DNA of 32,000 bases, from assembly GCA_028713935.1 (NCBI GenBank), contig JAQTNI010000010.1, positions 1,171 to 33,170 of the forward strand, given 5' to 3'. Positions within the stretch are counted from its first letter, which is position 1; every line of letters starts with the position of its first letter. The position numbers were made by a program, and so were the translations under genes. The notes below the pieces were generated by a model. The model ran no database searches and was not told where the DNA came from. It worked only from the letters and a program-made list of their open reading frames with translations. This DNA is from Candidatus Iainarchaeum sp. (GTDB taxonomy: Archaea > Iainarchaeota > Iainarchaeia > Iainarchaeales > GCA-2688035). Positions 6,897 through 31,774 of the stretch are shown one piece after another.

Positions 6897-7760
6897 TCAG
6901 CATATTCCTTTGAAGTCTGGCGGGAGTTTTCCTTTTGCAATCAGGCTGAATAAATCGTCAAAGAGCCAGAGTTTTGCGCAGCCGATTGCGGGGATTTGCA
7001 GGGCTGAAATTCCCTGAAGAGAGGATATTTTTACTGGGTAGAGTGTTATGCAGGGTTTTTCTGTTTCAACATACACAGTGTTTCCGTTTGTGGTTGTTGA
7101 TACTTTTCCACAGTCCTGGTCAATTGTGGGGTTGTTCACTGAATCGCCTTTTGTAAGGATGTAGTCCCCGTCCTGAACATGAATTTTGGCTACTGCCCTG
7201 TGAATTATCGGGATTTGTGAAAGCTCCGAGAAATAAACAATAATGCTTCCTGTTTTTGTTATTTGTATTTCCTGGCCTGAACTGAACTTGATTTTATTCA
7301 GTATGAAGCCTGCTGTTGTTTCGCTTGTCTTTGAGTATTCCGGGACTGCAAATTCTGAAAAAGGAATGTTCTGCAGTGTTGGCAGGTTTAGGCTTGCTTC
7401 TTGCGCCTGTATGTTTTGCGTGTTTGCGCCGAACAAGGCAATTACATCTCCCCTGTGGTATACTGGCTCCATGCTTCCGCTTACAACAATCACCATTGGC
7501 GAGGAAGTTCCAAAAGCAATGCCCAGTCCCGTGTAAATCAGCCATGCAAAAACAAAGGCGGAAACAAGGTAAATTCCTGTGCTTATCCACTCGTTTTTTG
7601 AAGGATTGATTTTTGGCATGAGGAATAAATCCACATAGGTAAAGGGGTCTATCCATTTTAATTTTCCGTGGATTTTTTTAAGCGCGGAAACAATTCCCTT
7701 TTCTGGTTTTTCCTGTGCACCAGGGAAAGGCAGATTTTTTTTGTTGTTCTTGCTCACCAA
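6897..7760 (-). CDS. Signal peptidase I, archaeal/eukaryal Sec11-type (S26B), with a long C-terminal extension
   Basis: TM segment followed by VVSGSMEPVYHRGDVIALFG (catalytic Ser box) and IIHRAVAKI (His box). The start is TTG 7760 or the adjacent GTG. Confidence 0.8.
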   Translation of the reverse strand: MVSKNNKKNLPFPGAQEKPEKGIVSALKKIHGKLKWIDPFTYVDLFLMPKINPSKNEWISTGIYLVSAFVFAWLIYTGLGIAFGTSSPMVIVVSGSMEPVYHRGDVIALFGANTQNIQAQEASLNLPTLQNIPFSEFAVPEYSKTSETTAGFILNKIKFSSGQEIQITKTGSIIVYFSELSQIPIIHRAVAKIHVQDGDYILTKGDSVNNPTIDQDCGKVSTTTNGNTVYVETEKPCITLYPVKISSLQGISALQIPAIGCAKLWLFDDLFSLIAKGKLPPDFKGIC

Positions 7761-8671: not shown

Positions 8672-8745
8672 AGCAACACCTCAAAAAAATTTATTCATAA
8701 AAATAAATTGTTTCCTTTTCTTGGACAACTTGTTTATCCCCAATT

Positions 8746-8861
8746 CAGGATTCTTTCTTTTGGGCACCTTGCACTTTTCTTCCTTGTGAAGCAAAGCTTC
8801 ACGAGGCCTCGCAAACCGCAAGGTTTGCAAGGTCTTGCAAAGAAAGAAAAGGGCGGACCTC
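8746..8861. repeat. Intergenic structured element, copy A (polypyrimidine arms, inserted hairpins, polypurine arm)
   Basis: Layout: CAGGA-TTCTTTCTTTT (8751-8761), GGGCACCTTGCAC, TTTTCTTCCTT (8775-8785), then an inner segment of about 53 nt, then AAAGAAAGAAAA (8839-8850), then GGGCGG. The inner segment holds perfect hairpins GTGAAGC-AAA-GCTTCAC (8786-8802) and GCAAACC-GCAA-GGTTTGC (8811-8828), plus the palindrome CGAGGCCTCG. The outer parts align with copy B at 27371-27434. Confidence 0.6.
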
Positions 8862-8885
8862 AAAAAAATTTTAGAAAAATTATAA

Positions 8886-26817: not shown

Positions 26818-27318
26818 CTATCTGGTTTTTTTCAGGGCAGAATCGCAGATGTCGCAGCGCTTTTCTTCTGTTGTGTTTGGGAATTCTTTGGCGCAGTTTG
26901 AGCAGACTGTCCTGAAAGAAATTGTTTTTGAAATTTTTCCCTGGATTATCGGTTCAAAGGGAATTTCCAATAACAGGCAAAAATTTTGTATGCTATAATC
27001 ATCAGTAACCACTGTGAATGCTTCCGGCATTTCCCTGAATTCCACTGCAAGCGCAATGATTGAAAGGTCTGCGCTGCTCAGCCTCTGAAAGCCGCTTTGC
27101 ATTGTTTTTCTTGCAACCCAGCCGACTGTTTCGGGTTTTGGGTCAAAAACAGAAATCAATTGCCTTTGCAGGGCTGATTCCAAGAGGCTTTTGCTTCTCA
27201 AATCCTTTATTTCCCAGACTATTTCAGAGGTTGTTGCATAAGCAAACTCTTCCTTGAAGGAAAAATTGAAGTCATTCAGGACAGCGGAACTGTCCAATAA
27301 GAGAACTTTTTTTGGCAT
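26818..27318 (-). CDS. nob1: Nob1-like PIN-domain endonuclease with a C-terminal zinc ribbon
   Basis: From ATG 27318: MPKKVLLLDSSAVLNDF (PIN acidic start) ... VVTDDYSIQNFCLLLEIPFEP ... CSNCAKEF....CDICDSAL (Zn ribbon). The 134 codons upstream in the track ORF (to 27720) look like antisense/low-complexity read-through. Confidence 0.75.
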   Translation of the reverse strand: MPKKVLLLDSSAVLNDFNFSFKEEFAYATTSEIVWEIKDLRSKSLLESALQRQLISVFDPKPETVGWVARKTMQSGFQRLSSADLSIIALAVEFREMPEAFTVVTDDYSIQNFCLLLEIPFEPIIQGKISKTISFRTVCSNCAKEFPNTTEEKRCDICDSALKKTR

Positions 27319-27370
27319 AAAAAAACACTTTTTTGATACAACAAAAGAGAAATACTGCTTATTACAAGTC

Positions 27371-27434
27371 CAGGATTTCTTTCTTTTTGGCAACCTACAT
27401 TTTTCTTTCTTTTGCAAAGAAAGAAAAAGGCGGG
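27371..27434. repeat. Intergenic structured element, copy B (compact triplex-capable form)
   Basis: Layout: CAGGA; Y1 TTTCTTTCTTTTT (27376-27388); 11-nt linker; Y2 TTTTTCTTTCTTT (27400-27412); loop TGC; R AAAGAAAGAAAAA (27416-27428); GGCGGG. Y2 is the exact reverse complement of R. Y1 is the exact mirror of Y2. Confidence 0.65.
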
Positions 27435-27502
27435 TATTAAATAATTCTTTGCTTAAATAGTTAATTAAATATTGGTGTTTAGTGCAGTGTAAGTGATGTT
27501 TC

Positions 27503-28960
27503 ATGGATTTGAAGGCAATCGCGGCATCGCTCAGCGAAATTGAAAAAAAAGCCCTGAAGGCAATCGGCTCTGAAGAGAGTTTTTCCTTTGAGGAAATTGC
27601 AGGCAAAAGCGGGCTGCAGATTGATTCTGTCAGGAGGGCAATGGGCTGGCTTGCGGAAAAAAAGCTTGTTGAAATAAGCGAGGAAAAAAAATTTGAAAAA
27701 AGGCTCACTGAAAAAGGCAAAATTTACCTTGAAAAAGGCATGCCTGAAGAGGTTTTTTTGGATTGCCTTGAAAAAATTGGCGGAACAAGCGATTTTGAAG
27801 AATTGCAGAAAAAAACCTTTTTGCCAAAAGAAGAATTTGGGTTTGCGCTTGGCTTTAACAGGAAAAAAAATTTTGTAGTAATTTTGAAAGGCGAAAAGCC
27901 GCGCATACAATTGACTGGGCTTTCAAAGGAACTCCCCCCTGAAAGCGGAAAAGAACTTTTGGAAAAAATCGAGGAAAAAAAACTTCTTGAAAGGGAAAAA
28001 TTTTTGGAATTAAGGGAAAGGGGAATTGTTGAAGAAATTGAAAAAACAGCGAGAAAAGCAAGAATCAATGAACAGGGAAAAAAAGCGCTTGAAGCAATTG
28101 GCAGTGCAAAGGAACGCGCTTATAATATCCAGGGCGCTGTCCCGGAAATTTTTATTGGAAAAAAACAGCCTTATGTGAGGTTTCTGCAGGGCATAAGGAG
28201 AAAGCTCACTGAACTCGGCTTTGTTGAAATGGATTCCCCTGCCATAGTGCAGGAATTTTATAATTTTGATGTCTTGTTTCAGCCCCAGAACCATCCCGCA
28301 AGGCAATGGGCCGACACTTACCAGTTAAAACAGCCAAAATTTGGCGCGCTTCCCCCTGAAAAAATTGTTGAAAAAATAAAGGCTGCACATGAAAATGGTG
28401 CTGGCACAGGAAGCAGGGGCTGGCAGTACAAATGGGACATTGAAATCGCAAAAAAGCTCATGCCTGCAGCGCATGCCACTGCGCATTCAGCAAGGCAGCT
28501 TGTGAAAGGCGTTAAAGTTCCCGGAAAATATTTTTCAATTTCGCGCTGTTACAGGCCGGACATTGTCGATGCAAAGCACCTTATTGAATTCAACCAGATG
28601 GATGGAATAATTATTGACGAACAAATGAATTTCAGGAAATTACTGGGAATGTTAAGGCAATTTGCAGTTGAATTTGCAGGAACAGAAAAAATAAAATTTG
28701 TTCCAAGCTATTACCCTTTCACAGAGCCAAGCTGCCAGTTGAATGTAAAGCACCCGGAGCTCGGATGGATAGAGCTTGGAGGAAGCGGAATTTTTCGGCC
28801 TGAATTAACCTTGCCTTTAGGAATAAAACAGCCAGTGCTTGCCTGGGGCCTTGGAATTGACAGGCTTGCAATGGTAAAGCTTGGCATAAAAGACATAAGG
28901 CAATTGTTTTCAGACGATTTAAACTGGCTGAGAAAACAACCAATGGCGGCGATTGAATGA
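27503..28960 (+). CDS. pheS: Phenylalanine--tRNA ligase alpha subunit (archaeal type)
   Basis: 485 aa. N-terminal winged-helix repeats, then the class II core: FQPQNHPARQWADTY ... HATAHSARQL ... YFSISRCYRPD ... FNQMDGIII ... SYYPFTEPS ... GSGIFRPE ... WGLGIDRLAM. Confidence 0.92.
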   Translation: MDLKAIAASLSEIEKKALKAIGSEESFSFEEIAGKSGLQIDSVRRAMGWLAEKKLVEISEEKKFEKRLTEKGKIYLEKGMPEEVFLDCLEKIGGTSDFEELQKKTFLPKEEFGFALGFNRKKNFVVILKGEKPRIQLTGLSKELPPESGKELLEKIEEKKLLEREKFLELRERGIVEEIEKTARKARINEQGKKALEAIGSAKERAYNIQGAVPEIFIGKKQPYVRFLQGIRRKLTELGFVEMDSPAIVQEFYNFDVLFQPQNHPARQWADTYQLKQPKFGALPPEKIVEKIKAAHENGAGTGSRGWQYKWDIEIAKKLMPAAHATAHSARQLVKGVKVPGKYFSISRCYRPDIVDAKHLIEFNQMDGIIIDEQMNFRKLLGMLRQFAVEFAGTEKIKFVPSYYPFTEPSCQLNVKHPELGWIELGGSGIFRPELTLPLGIKQPVLAWGLGIDRLAMVKLGIKDIRQLFSDDLNWLRKQPMAAIE

Positions 28961-29514
28961 GTCCAAAACGTTACCGCCCTCCTCGAATATTACGCATGAG
29001 TGATGCTATCAATGCATTAACAAGTAAAGGGCTAAATACTTCTGACGCTGACATGGTGGTGCGCAAACTTCACACACGACATATTGGCCCCCAACGAGCA
29101 CTCCTATTTCTCATGCAACACGCGACACCAGAAGAGCTAAGAAAAATCGCACAACAAGGCCAGACAATGGGAAAACAGCGAACTCCGATCACACAGCCAC
29201 ACCAAAGCCTTGCAAATTTTGTGCTTCACATGGCACTGGGCAAAATTTCCCAATTGCACGCAAGCCAATCCGGGGCTGGAAAGTTCTACAAATCGCTTCA
29301 AGAAGGAATTGCAAGCAAATTAGGTTTTGTGGACATCACGCCGCTTGTCACAGACAGACTCAGACCCAGGCATAATCCTGCATTGTTTCAAACATTTATC
29401 CGCTTGGAGCGAGAACTCCTTCTGCACGAAAAAACAGGCAGGTTATTGACGCCTGAAGGAATAACCGCGCAAGAAAGATTTTGGAAATTTGTTCAACAGA
29501 GTATAAAAGAGTGA
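28957..29514 (+). CDS. Hypothetical protein P6, inserted between pheS and pheT
   Basis: Its ATG overlaps the pheS TGA (ATGA at 28957-28960). 185 aa and a paralog of P7: shared M.PK..RP start, KGL....D.D, P.RAL....PEELR, ALGKI, DI.P, and a C-terminal TPE....E.F helix. Arg codons are mostly CGN (10 of 16 by my count), against AGR-dominated neighbours. Confidence 0.55.
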   Translation: MSPKRYRPPRILRMSDAINALTSKGLNTSDADMVVRKLHTRHIGPQRALLFLMQHATPEELRKIAQQGQTMGKQRTPITQPHQSLANFVLHMALGKISQLHASQSGAGKFYKSLQEGIASKLGFVDITPLVTDRLRPRHNPALFQTFIRLERELLLHEKTGRLLTPEGITAQERFWKFVQQSIKE

Positions 29515-29587
29515 AAAAAAAGCTTTCTTTAGAAATAAGCAAAAAAGGTTTGGAAATGCTTGCAAGAAAAAAAGCAAGGGTGATACT

Positions 29588-30121
29588 GTGAGGCCAAAAA
29601 TCAGGCCACTGGTTCAGGCAAGAGAAAGCGCAGTGGCTCTTTACAGAATGGAAAAGGTTATGCAAAAAACAGGTTTGCAGCAAAGAGACTTTGATTTTTT
29701 GCTGCAGGCTTTAAGGCCTGAAAACCCTGGGCAAACAAGGGCATTAAACGGAATTCTTGCAAGCCTGCCAGCTGAACAATTAAGGGGGCTTGCAGCAAAA
29801 TTGCGCGCAGGGCAAACAACCAGGAACCAGATATTGCCAAGGAAATCTTCTGAACACGCTTTGGGAAAAATCCGGAGTCTGGCTCCGGGCACATTTGGAA
29901 AAGAACTTTTAACATTAAAAACCAGATACAAAATGGGTTACAGGGACATAATCCCTGAAGCTGTGCGCAGGGCAAGCCATGTATATCTTTCGCGGGGAGA
30001 ACGCGCGGATTTTGACAGGGCAAGCAGGGTTTTGATAGAAATGGAAAGACAGGGAAAAAAAGGGACTCCTGAATTCAGGGAAACTGAAAAAATTTTTCGC
30101 AGGATAGTAAAACATTTATAG
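29588..30121 (+). CDS. Hypothetical protein P7, tandem paralog of P6
   Basis: GTG start preceded by GGGTGA (29578-29583). 177 aa. The stop TAG 30119-30121 lies 9 nt before the pheT ATG, inside an AGGTGA Shine-Dalgarno-like motif. Confidence 0.55.
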   Translation: MRPKIRPLVQARESAVALYRMEKVMQKTGLQQRDFDFLLQALRPENPGQTRALNGILASLPAEQLRGLAAKLRAGQTTRNQILPRKSSEHALGKIRSLAPGTFGKELLTLKTRYKMGYRDIIPEAVRRASHVYLSRGERADFDRASRVLIEMERQGKKGTPEFRETEKIFRRIVKHL

Positions 30122-30130
30122 GTGAAAAAA

Positions 30131-31774
30131 ATGCCTTCTCTTGAAATCAGCAAAAAAGATTTGGAATCCCTTGCAAAAACAAAATTTGCCTCAAAGGAAA
30201 AGCTTGAAGAGGCATTGGAGTTTGCAAAATGCGAGCTTGATGCAATTGAAGGCGACAAGCTTGCCATTGGAGTGAGCGATACAAACAGGCCTGATTTGTT
30301 AAGCGCAGAAGGCATTGCAAGGGAAATAAGAAGCCATTATTCAAAAGAAAAAGGAGTGCCAAAATACAAAATAACAAATTCCAGTGTTTCGCTTATTGTT
30401 GACAAAAACATTGAAAAAATCCGGCCCTGCATTGCAGCCGCAATAGTGAAAAAAGTGAATGTAACAGAAGAATTTTTGGCGCAAATGATTCAATTGCAGG
30501 AAAAGGTTTGCCTGACTTTTGGAAGAAAAAGAAAAGAAGCAGCAATCGGCCTATATGATTGGTCAAAGCTGAAAGCGCCAATGCATTACAAGGCATTCAG
30601 GCCAAAAGAGCTGAAATTTATTCCGCTTGATTACAAGGCAGAAATGGACCTGGAAGAAATTTTGCTTGAGCACCCAAAGGGAAAAGAATACGCGCATCTC
30701 CTCAAAGGATTCGAAAAATATCCCATTGTAATTGACAACGAGGGAAAAGTCGCTTCAATGCCGCCGGTTATTAATTCACAGGCAACAGGCAAGGTTTCTG
30801 AAACAACAAAAGAGCTTCTTGTGGAAGTGACAGGCCATAAACAGGAAACAGTGAACACTGCGCTGAATGTAATGGTTTCAGCGCTTGCAGAAAGAGGCTT
30901 TGATATTTATAATGTGAAAATAAAATATCCGGGCAAAAGCATTGTTACTCCGGATTTTTTGCCAAAAAAAATTGATGTAAAAATTGAAAGCATAAAAAGG
31001 CTTTCAGGATTAAGCCCCAGTGAAAAGCAGATTATTGAATTGTTTGGAAAAGCGCGTTACAATGCAAGGAAAAAAAAAGGCTTTTTTTCCTGCGAATACC
31101 CTGCTTACAGGCAGGATGTTTTGCATGAAGTTGACGCAATTGAAGACCTGCTGATAAGCATTGGATATAACAAAATAACGCCTTTGCCTGTTGAACTTGC
31201 TTGCGTTGGCGCAGAAAGCAGGGAAACAAAAATCATGGATTCTGCAAGGGAAATTTGCACAGGGCTGGGCTTGCAGGAAGCACTGACTTTTACAATGACA
31301 AGCAAGGGAAAACAACTGCAAAAAATTTTCCTTTCCGAAAAAAGCCTTGTTGAAATTGCAAACCCTGTTTCGGCTAACTATGAAATTTTCAGGCAAAGAA
31401 TCCTGCCAGAGCTTCTTGATTTTTTCGGGAAAAACAAGAACTGCGAATATCCGCAAAAAATTTTTGAAATTGGAAAATGCTTTGAAACAAATGAAGGGCT
31501 TGAAACAAAAACAAGGGAACCGATAAAACTGTGCATTGCAATAAGCGGAAAAGAAGCCGAATTCACTTTAATCAAATCAATTTTGGATGCTTTTTGCAAA
31601 AACATGGGCCTTGAATATGAATTGCGCGAATCCGAACTGGCTTTTTTGGAAAAAGGAAAACAAGGAGAAATTCTTATTGGAAACAAAAAAGGATTTATAG
31701 GCGAAATCAATAGAAAGGTACTGCAGAATTTTGGATTGGAAATGCCGACAGCCGCATTGGAAATTGAATTGTGA
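30131..31774 (+). CDS. pheT: Phenylalanine--tRNA ligase beta subunit (archaeal type)
   Basis: From ATG 30131 (the track gives GTG 30122): MPSLEISKKDLESL... About 547 aa, the archaeal PheT length, with B3/4 and B5-like regions and the C-terminal catalytic-like domain (YPAYRQDVLHEVDAIEDLLISIGYN, IANPVSANYEIFRQRILPELL). Confidence 0.9.
   Translation: MPSLEISKKDLESLAKTKFASKEKLEEALEFAKCELDAIEGDKLAIGVSDTNRPDLLSAEGIAREIRSHYSKEKGVPKYKITNSSVSLIVDKNIEKIRPCIAAAIVKKVNVTEEFLAQMIQLQEKVCLTFGRKRKEAAIGLYDWSKLKAPMHYKAFRPKELKFIPLDYKAEMDLEEILLEHPKGKEYAHLLKGFEKYPIVIDNEGKVASMPPVINSQATGKVSETTKELLVEVTGHKQETVNTALNVMVSALAERGFDIYNVKIKYPGKSIVTPDFLPKKIDVKIESIKRLSGLSPSEKQIIELFGKARYNARKKKGFFSCEYPAYRQDVLHEVDAIEDLLISIGYNKITPLPVELACVGAESRETKIMDSAREICTGLGLQEALTFTMTSKGKQLQKIFLSEKSLVEIANPVSANYEIFRQRILPELLDFFGKNKNCEYPQKIFEIGKCFETNEGLETKTREPIKLCIAISGKEAEFTLIKSILDAFCKNMGLEYELRESELAFLEKGKQGEILIGNKKGFIGEINRKVLQNFGLEMPTAALEIEL

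Follow-up and report, generated by a model that had tools for sequence, protein, structure and literature searches.

The stretch of DNA analysed here (the window; 32,000 nucleotides, G000:C10:1171-33170) is part of an archaeal genome (G000) of 1.23 Mb with a GC content of 39.7%, which is present as 72 contigs. Between two divergent genes of the window, one for a Nob1-type PIN endonuclease and one for PheS, lies a short non-coding element with three matching arms, referred to as copy B. Its head starts 36 nt from the start of the Nob1-type gene and two TATA-like boxes (at ~27435-27447 and ~27462-27474) lie between the element and the start codon of pheS. An earlier reading of the letters alone (the sequence-only reading) had described this position between the two genes with the TATA-like box of pheS downstream, as can be seen in the sequence. 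The features of the locus are:

26818..27318, minus strand: gene of the Nob1-type PIN endonuclease (PF17146 PIN_6, E = 4.7e-11)
27355..27375, plus strand: head of copy B, CTGCTTATTACAAGTCCAGGA, a diverged form of the genus consensus YTGTTTAYCAAAAGWTYMRGR
27376..27388, plus strand: Y1, the pyrimidine third strand (Hoogsteen arm), TTTCTTTCTTTTT, exact mirror of Y2
27389..27399, plus strand: linker of 11 nt, GGCAACCTACA
27400..27412, plus strand: Y2, the Watson-Crick pyrimidine arm, TTTTTCTTTCTTT, forming a perfect 13-bp hairpin with R
27413..27415, plus strand: hairpin loop TGC
27416..27428, plus strand: R, the purine arm, AAAGAAAGAAAAA, whose exact reverse complement is Y2
27429..27434, plus strand: tail GGCGG(G), 3' strand of a lower stem and end of the element
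27503..28960, plus strand: pheS (PheRS alpha; PF01409, E = 1.1e-76)

The three-arm layout claimed for 27371-27434 is exact, in its coordinates as well as in the relation of Y2 to R (reverse complement) and of Y1 to Y2 (mirror image). All 13 layers have an allowed triplet (T.A-T or C.G-C), and the order of the tracts on one strand, Hoogsteen pyrimidine, Watson-Crick pyrimidine, purine, is that of class IV intrastrand triplex motifs as defined by Holder et al. 2015. In duplex DNA, Y1 and Y2 form a homopyrimidine mirror repeat, 11 nt apart, of the type that characterises H-DNA. Copy B is the sole perfect pyrimidine/purine hairpin of at least 11 bp in the window; the single 13-mer is unremarkable (3 matches with up to one mismatch, 2.06 expected). 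Two short motifs had been taken as a bracket around the arms: GGCGGG is indeed the tail of the element, but CAGGA, directly 5' of Y1, is the end of the 21-nt head that is typical of the genus.

The second copy that had been noticed elsewhere is present in the window as copy A, a type I element (see below) with a long loop and one C:A mismatch; the genome, however, has about 90 copies rather than two. The features around copy A are:

8678..8692, plus strand: upstream copy of a 15-nt direct repeat, ACCTCAAAAAAATTT
8711-8729: older 3'-truncated module, TTTCCTTTTCTTGGACAAC, between the upstream direct-repeat copy and copy A
8730..8856, plus strand: copy A, a long-loop type I element
8730-8750, plus strand: head
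8751-8761, plus strand: Y1
8762-8774, plus strand: linker
8775-8785, plus strand: Y2
8786-8838, plus strand: insert of two hairpins (~53 nt) in the loop
8839-8850, plus strand: R
8851-8856, plus strand: tail
8857-8871: second copy of the 15-nt direct repeat, flush after the tail of copy A

The search of the genome for this architecture and the test of co-variation among copies, both proposed in the sequence-only reading, recovered a repeat family with three co-varying arms. Compact three-arm designs (arms of at least 8 nt, loop of at most 12 nt, linker of at most 25 nt) occur 87 times in the genome, including 37 whose arms have 12 nt or more, and 0 times in five first-order Markov genomes of the same size. 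BLAST, a regular expression for the linker and nhmmer all find copies on many contigs, and a structure-based scan (pure pyrimidine and purine arms of at least 8 nt with a mirror arm upstream) returned 112 loci: 40 clear type I elements, 38 type II elements and 34 variants or chance matches. We estimate that the genome has ~40-50 copies of type I, the kind of copy B, and ~40 of the shorter type II. A MITE-like dispersed repeat had been among the candidates proposed from the sequence alone, and as far as dispersal goes this candidate was well chosen.

Type I elements consist of a head (YTGTTTAYCAAAAGWTYMRGR), Y1 (11-15 nt), a linker (G)GGCAACYTRCA(C), Y2, a loop, R and a tail (G)GGCRG. Their arms are A/T-rich (~85% A/T and ~15% C), and their loops vary freely among copies; some copies have a hairpin of ~50 nt inserted in the linker, others, copy A among them, two hairpins (~53-57 nt) inserted in the loop. 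The head is kept among the copies of the genus and is not conserved in other families of the order. Type II elements consist of a hairpin of 8-9 bp, Y1 (8 nt), CCNNGG, Y2 (8 nt), a loop, R (8 nt) and GCNN, and their linker and tail co-vary as a pair (ccaggg/gcct, ccgagg/gctc, cccagg/gctg).

The repeat is spread over many families of the order. The linker 21-mer (up to one mismatch) is present in 10 of 40 relatives, while a control with the reversed pattern gave 0. An anchored pattern built on the linker core GGCAACYTRCA is present in 30 of 150 genomes of the order, from at least 14 families; when only the 171 genomes of the phylum with a completeness of at least 80% are considered, it occurs in 28, and in 0 of the 12 of these that fall outside the order. 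The exact 19-mer TTTGGGCAACTTACACTTT is present in 41 stretches of GTDB representative genomes, nearly all of them labelled Candidatus Iainarchaeum or unclassified archaeon and including the complete genome CP010424.1 (archaeon GW2011_AR10). All but two of these stretches have the three arms (39 of 41); one of the two is cut by a contig end and the other, with a delta-proteobacterium label, is a chance match. No match to the 19-mer linker was found among the IMG/VR viral contigs.

Whether the third arm is maintained was examined on 81 distinct type I copies from 30 genomes, which were anchored on linker and tail only, with layers counted outwards from the junction of arms and linker. The order Y1, Y2, R on the same strand is found in 81/81. 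These copies carry 40 different arm variants, and Y1 fits its own Y2 in nearly all. Of 1,051 layers, 805 are T.A-T, 148 are C.G-C and 58 are G.G-C, the latter always at the junction; 24 lie beyond the 14 nt that were read upstream and only about 16 are exceptional. Layer consistency is 99.5%, in comparison to 76.3 +/- 1.2% when Y1 is shuffled among the copies, and for C layers the values are 98.6% and 44.9 +/- 2.8%. With one copy per variant, consistency is 100% versus 27.9 +/- 5.6%, and the observed value was reached in 0/5000 shuffles. Thus, the claim that the triplex design exceeds chance or low complexity holds for the family as a whole. Since a mirror repeat cannot be templated by a polymerase, its persistence would imply selection on third-strand pairing. 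Adjacent C residues are present in 0/35 arms (~5 are expected from shuffles), and this suits a pyrimidine-motif triplex at neutral pH, which needs the avoidance of adjacent C+. The exceptional layers have R as the odd strand in 9 cases, Y1 in 5 and Y2 in 2. Among them, T:G (5) and C:A (6) mismatches are equally rare and G:U wobbles are almost absent; an attempt to use wobble bias as a pointer to RNA or DNA, or to the folded strand, was therefore uninformative.

Where the arms have two C residues, as in copy B, Y1 and Y2 can also be aligned directly in a shifted register (11 of 13). A switch between two hairpins, with Y1 and Y2 in competition for R, was therefore put to the test with arm variants whose C spacing is asymmetric, as these distinguish the two relations: 5/5 are exact mirrors and none fits any direct register, and the lengths of the flanking T-runs are mirrored as well. 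These variants exclude the two-hairpin switch.

The junction is part of the design too. Each extra G at the junction adds one triplet, as is obvious from its three forms: TTTT-GGCAAC...ACA-TTTT...AAAA-GGCRG, TTT-GGGCAAC...ACAC-TTT...AAA-GGGCRG and TTT-GGGGCAAC...ACACC-TTT...AAA-GGGGCRG. Linker position 7 and tail position 4 behave like a base pair (T:A 59, C:G 20, T:G 1, C:A 1). In minimum free energy folds by ViennaRNA, which has no energy model for triplexes and returns only the hairpin and a lower stem with Y1 largely free, the 3' half of the linker pairs with the tail. We infer from these sequence features that the GG of the linker continues the third strand, that CAA makes the turn and that CCTACA is the 5' strand of the lower stem paired with the tail. 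In the predicted fold, Y2 and R would form a hairpin that the 3' half of the linker (CYTRCA) and the tail (GGCRG) extend by a short lower stem; Y1 with its G-run would follow the major groove in parallel with R and contribute T.A-T and isolated C+.G-C triplets, followed by 1-3 G.G-C layers at the junction and the 3-nt CAA turn. The complementary strand has the design of a purine-motif (class II) triplex with almost only A.A-T layers, which is the weaker kind, and this favours the plus strand of copy B as the folding strand. Type I elements are thus predicted to form triple helices, in a single strand: either in single-stranded DNA during copying or insertion, or in RNA where the element is transcribed in this sense.

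The spacer between nob1 and pheS was compared with that of G002 (same genus) and G004 (same family); the contig of a further genome, G001, ends inside nob1 and is uninformative. Neither spacer has the element. The sequence of G000 just past the tail of copy B (TATTAAATAATTCTTT...) aligns with the spacer of G002, so copy B is extra DNA directly upstream of a shared AT-rich promoter region, and its gain most probably took place in the lineage leading to this genome. A regulatory role at nob1 or pheS, which had been suggested for the element, finds no counterpart in this comparison: we see no tie to either gene, and the specific link of copy B to nob1 and pheS looks incidental. Copy B would survive here because the seam between the two genes tolerates extra DNA. 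No duplication of its flanks is detectable (score 7, the null level), and it is a well-preserved but otherwise ordinary member of its family.

Insertion is more readily seen at other loci, for which the flanks of 19 copies from G001 and G002 were mapped to G000. The contigs G001:C44 and G000:C15 are a clean pair of filled and empty site: the insert includes the head, the arms and the tail and is flanked on either side by a copy of a ~20-nt target stretch. Within G000, direct repeats flank copies on contigs C55 (34 nt), C58 (34 nt), C52 (36 nt, 100% identical) and C30 (36 nt), as well as copy A (15 nt). The flanking-repeat scores of 7 of 29 copies in G000 are above the 95th percentile of controls made from mismatched pairs, and the 99th percentile of the null is exceeded at 6 of 40 loci in other genomes, where the repeats have 16-39 nt. 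The downstream duplicate begins 0-6 nt past the tail, and directly at it (0 nt) in five of the six significant loci of other genomes. Overall the duplications vary in length between ~12 and 39 nt. Locus L068 has two tandem elements; in the best reading, an identical 24-nt piece with the Shine-Dalgarno sequence and the start of the next gene comes before each of them, followed by a head-like stretch of 15 nt. Type II copies have no significant flanking duplications. An origin of the duplicated flanks of L052 and L058 from CRISPR repeats was considered and rejected, as there is no array.

Copies are also exchanged in place. At G000:C4:41965 and downstream of tRNA-Gly(CCC), the orthologous position in G001 has a different arm variant, with the linker/tail pair switched in concert, and the 5' end of the tRNA-Gly(CCC) intron has a type II element in G001 and a type I element in G000. 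At G000:C5:22531, an older copy has lost its 3' part to a newer, complete one, with the junction of tail and flank unchanged. Upstream of some full copies are arrays of 3'-truncated modules (head-Y1-GGGCAA) with differing Y1 variants, which the case at C5:22531 explains by newer copies replacing the 3' parts of older ones. SINE-like retroposition, to which such half modules might point, was rejected: no reverse transcriptase gene was found, and the half modules are what newer copies have left of older ones.

On balance, we favour the reading of copy B as one copy, of type I, of an insertional (mobile) short repeat of triple-helix type in Iainarchaeia, from an archaeal family that seems not to have been described before. 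Only copies that keep the fold would be propagated or retained. Several observations stand against the mobile reading, among them the lack of a flanking duplication at copy B itself. The duplication lengths (~12-39 nt) are unlike those of a transposase with a fixed stagger, and no mobilising enzyme was identified. Reverse transcriptase, Cas1 and TnpB were not found in the genome, which is 93.7% complete. The genome has a single IS200-type TnpA as well as three tyrosine recombinases, and no copy of the repeat is associated with any of these. The Y1_Tnp gene (G000:C7:22349-22702) is flanked by GC-rich hairpins of its own, for example CGGCGGGCTTTAGCCCGCCG, which are not three-arm elements, and mobilisation of the RAYT/IS200 kind was rejected since the ends of the single TnpA are unrelated. 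Integration of the Cas1/casposase type, suggested by the duplications of 34-36 nt, was rejected for the lack of Cas1 and the variable lengths.

Many copies adjoin tRNA genes. Aragorn predicts 38 tRNA genes, 20 of them with introns, and in 16 of these the intron has 63-176 nt; 14 of the 16 have a three-arm repeat flush at the 5' end of the intron. The orientation is nearly invariant: of the 28 elements that adjoin a tRNA exon boundary, 27 have the hairpin end (R and tail) towards the exon. Of these, 5 adjoin the 5' end of a tRNA and 6 its 3' end, while 14 lie at the 5' side of an intron and 2 at the 3' side. The sole deviating case concerns an element that occupies almost all of its intron, seen from its far end. 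Consequently, the pyrimidine strand is sense upstream of tRNAs and antisense in introns and trailers. At protein-coding genes, the head of a type I element often follows directly on a stop codon, and 10-60 nt then separate its tail from the next start; where the element is reversed, the tail follows a stop codon at a distance of 3-7 nt. For type II elements, tail and stop codon are 2-6 nt apart. Some type I tails have the form GGGGAG just upstream of an ATG and could serve as Shine-Dalgarno sequence. A portable promoter with transcription starting right after the tail was rejected: its TATA position would fall in Y2 or the loop, which fits poorly, and it is contradicted by the mirrored orientation of copies at the 3' ends of tRNAs. 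Survival only at the seams of a compact genome explains much of the abutting, but not the strict tail-first polarity at tRNAs. This polarity and the conservation of the 13-nt linker across families hint at a host-level function or a targeting rule, for which simple selfish insertion does not account.

A more specific version of the mobile reading is possible, and we put it forward tentatively: a mobile element whose propagation depends on the intramolecular triplex and that integrates hairpin end first at the ends of stable RNAs and at gene seams, without reverse transcriptase, Cas1 or TnpB, leaving the ~12-39-nt duplications. Many of the unusually long tRNA introns of Iainarchaeia would owe their length, or their origin, to its activity. 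Its targets would be tRNA 5' ends, tRNA 3' ends and 5' splice sites, perhaps RNA:DNA-hybrid or stem-base junctions.

The same contexts could instead suggest a domesticated cis-acting RNA module, a transcribed hairpin, with or without the third strand, that marks or protects transcript boundaries. As part of a leader, a trailer, an intron or an intercistronic region, it would guide or block processing or exonucleases, or aid termination; copy B would then be part of the nob1 or the pheS transcript, or an insulator of the two. The hairpin flush with the exon in nearly all tRNA-adjacent copies, the regular spacing to stop and start codons, the GGGGAG tails before ATG and the linker conserved over many families would all fit. 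We nevertheless regard it as unlikely. The element is dispensable at the orthologous nob1-pheS spacers, pheS retains a separate TATA-like box between copy B and its start codon, and the compaction of the genome is by itself able to explain why surviving insertions abut functional units. Moreover, the transcribed strand depends on the context, pyrimidine upstream of genes and purine in introns and trailers. In the latter, binding of an A-rich third strand of RNA would not be expected, yet all three arms are kept equally. The near absence of G:U wobbles also speaks against this module.

Searches for known RNA families do not suggest an RNA relative. With Rfam 15, the window has 0 matches at the gathering score and a permissive search of 27300-27520 returned sub-threshold noise only (at most 20.5 bits). 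Separately, RNase P RNA is present at 80 bits, just below its cut-off of 84. The closest RNA analogues are the triple helices of ENE and A-rich tail (MALAT1, PAN RNA), which consist of stacked U.A-U triplets with an occasional C+.G-C; the 3' end of MALAT1 is made by RNase P cleavage beside a tRNA-like structure. The Iainarchaeia elements resemble them in the predicted stack of pyrimidine-motif triplets and in that several copies abut tRNAs. However, an ENE clamps a 3' A-rich tail in a U-rich internal loop, whereas the Iainarchaeia design folds a 5' pyrimidine strand onto a simple hairpin, and its transcribed strand is in most tRNA contexts the purine-motif strand. BHB introns reportedly transpose among archaeal tRNA genes, as Fujishima and colleagues are said to have described in 2010 for Thermoproteales. 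Here too, the introns of different tRNA genes share related modules, but the module is the repeat and not the intron: it is also present outside tRNAs (copy B), it has the triplex design and it lies beside the BHB-forming part.

Full-text literature searches returned no description of the family; nearest to it is work on the bacterial intrastrand triplex motifs PIT, BoxC and TMECO. The PIT motifs were reportedly described by Hoyne, Maher and colleagues in 2000. Four motif classes (I-IV) have been defined and found to be abundant in prokaryotic genomes, and the G/C-rich TMECO folds in vitro and is linked to genomic instability (Holder et al. 2015, PMC4666352). The Iainarchaeia repeats share with these motifs the three tracts on one strand that can fold back into a triplex, the dispersed, intergenic and multi-copy occurrence, the tie to local rearrangement and a complement that carries another motif class (here class IV on the plus strand and class II on the minus strand). 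The differences are considerable: TMECO is short, bacterial, G/C-rich and of class II, with C-G-G triads, whereas the Iainarchaeia family is archaeal, ~85% A/T, has 8-15 triplets with isolated C and, unlike TMECO, a conserved linker/tail stem, a head, three-way co-variation over 40 variants and ~12-39-nt flanking duplications. The BoxC/TMECO consensus (C-G-G triads; stems of the type CCCTC...GGGAGGG) is absent, and the linker GGCAACYTRCA is unrelated to it. The Iainarchaeia elements also lodge flush at tRNA exon ends and within introns, whereas tRNA has 0 occurrences in the text of Holder et al. 2015 (PMC4666352) on TMECO.

A structure in duplex DNA, H-DNA of Y1 and Y2 together with a cruciform of Y2 and R, could absorb supercoils, act as a barrier between divergent or adjacent transcription units or promote rearrangement, as has been suggested for TMECO repeats in bacteria (Holder et al. 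2015, PMC4666352). The homopyrimidine mirror repeat and the inverted repeat are both present, only strict Watson-Crick pairing is tolerated, copies lie in promoter-proximal and intergenic seams, and the replaced and truncated modules recall the instability reported in that work (Holder et al. 2015, PMC4666352). We still hold such a structure to be improbable as the basis of the family, and the H-DNA element proposed in the sequence-only reading falls short as an explanation: H-DNA needs the mirror repeat only and does not by itself account for an R arm kept on the same strand, the spacer of 11-13 nt is long for H-DNA, and the order Y1-Y2-R, the lower stem and the turn point to a fold of a single strand.

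In being short, non-coding, hairpin-forming, mainly intergenic repeats that have many copies, often right after stop codons, and that differ in presence between close genomes, the elements resemble REP/BIME sequences and MITEs. They are unlike both in the conserved third, mirror-image arm. No RAYT-like gene is flanked by inverted copies, as would be typical of REP/RAYT. Terminal inverted repeats, typical of MITEs, are lacking, since head (YTGTTTAYC...) and tail (...GGCRG) have only CTG in common when inverted, and in place of a short target duplication of fixed length there are ~12-39 nt.

A stand-alone gene of a small non-coding RNA, with the head as a weak TATA box and the start near the G of GGCAAC, is very unlikely. 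One copy (C41:324-373) has a canonical TTTAAAATATAA box in place of the head at the same distance, and TATA-like strings precede Y1 in other families. However, the head TGTTTAYCAAAAG is unlike the usual promoter motif of the genome, TTATTTAAATATT, read from the upstream regions of tRNAs; copies in tRNA introns would fire antisense into the exon, and on these grounds the head was rejected as a promoter. With a start in the linker, moreover, Y1 would not be transcribed and its co-variation would have no explanation; the tail is not followed by a terminator, and no Rfam family matches. Plain low-complexity sequence, at odds with the arm shuffles and the 0 designs in Markov genomes, and the two-state hairpin switch deserve hardly any credence.

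For the mobile repeat that we favour, the interest lies in the family itself rather than in copy B. Natural sequences that demonstrably preserve Hoogsteen pairing are rare, and here 40 independent arm variants keep it; the family is thus a clean natural system in which to ask whether triple helices form within single molecules in cells, and at which places. With ~90 copies in 1.2 Mb, which fill tRNA introns and sit flush at tRNA ends and gene seams, it seems to shape the genome architecture of these ultrasmall archaea. For the annotation of DPANN genomes, the family accounts for tRNA introns that are oddly long, introns that seem to be duplicated and promoter cassettes that recur, and its turnover with unusually long flanking duplications hints at an archaeal insertion or repair pathway that has not yet been described.

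Copy A, a type-I three-arm triplex repeat, has a 15-nt direct repeat on its two sides, at 8678-8692 and at 8857-8871, and upstream of copy A lies an older, 3'-truncated module, TTTCCTTTTCTTGGACAAC (8711-8729). Its loop carries two additional hairpins, common to the copies on contigs C55 and C58 of the source genome (G000). Three further copies in this genome have the tail GGGGAG, not GGGCAG, and the linker GGGAAAC. The positions are:

Window 8730-8856: copy A, type I
G000:C6:10424-10485: copy with GGGGAG tail
G000:C28:3065-3135: copy with GGGGAG tail
G000:C52:6066-6126: copy with GGGGAG tail

Because an ATG follows 10-19 nt past the tail in two of these three copies, GGGGAG may double as a Shine-Dalgarno sequence. 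A tandem pair of type-I elements is found in L068, a DNA stretch labelled Pacearchaeota (JAFCGM010000001.1, ~7250-7360): each element is preceded by an identical 24-nt piece, which includes the Shine-Dalgarno sequence and initial codons of the gene that lies downstream; the real gene begins with a third copy of this piece. The arrangement suggests repeated insertion at one site.

An identical 19-nt linker with matching arms is also present in metagenome-assembled genomes labelled by NCBI as belonging to other DPANN groups:

L080 and L081 (JAGVVW01): loci labelled Aenigmatarchaeota
L050: locus labelled Nanoarchaeia
L073: locus labelled Nanobdellati

Either these labels are loose, or the type-I element crosses phylum borders.

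The second repeat family, type II, has approximately 38 loci in G000 (for example C1:26568-26600 and C41:1374-1406), and no flanking duplications were detected for these. In type II repeats the arms are 8 nt long, the CCNNGG linker and the tail co-vary, the junction has a G.G mismatch, and a hairpin that likewise co-varies lies upstream; the tails are located 2-6 nt away from stop codons or are flush with tRNA exon ends. Introns of 63-176 nt are present in 16 of the 38 tRNA genes of G000, all outside the window (contigs C1, C2, C5, C7, C12, C23, C24, C27, C28, C32 and C41), and 14 of these 16 genes have, flush at the 5' end of the intron, a three-arm repeat that belongs to type I, to type II or to a variant. 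In tRNA-Glu(CTC), the AGAG partner for the anticodon-loop CTCT is still provided by the final 19 nt of the intron, which suggests that the repeat inserted adjacent to a short original BHB intron. The tRNA-Arg(CCT) intron has a type II repeat inside, and this tRNA gene adjoins a transposase gene:

G000:C7:22349-22702 (locus L041): single IS200-type Y1 transposase gene; no tnpB; GC-rich hairpins on its flanks

A long duplication is also seen at the pheS-pheT cluster of the window:

29511-29573: 63-nt stretch directly after the stop of the ORF 28957-29514
29588-30121: ORF of 177 aa, no Pfam match
30122-31774: pheT (PheRS beta)

The 63-nt stretch shares 83% identity with the start of pheT, over its first 63 nt (30122-30184), and the 177-aa ORF lies between the two copies, which looks like a gene-sized insertion with a long direct duplication at its flanks. 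As this signature is the same as that around the triplex repeats, insertion or repair in this lineage may generally involve long duplications.
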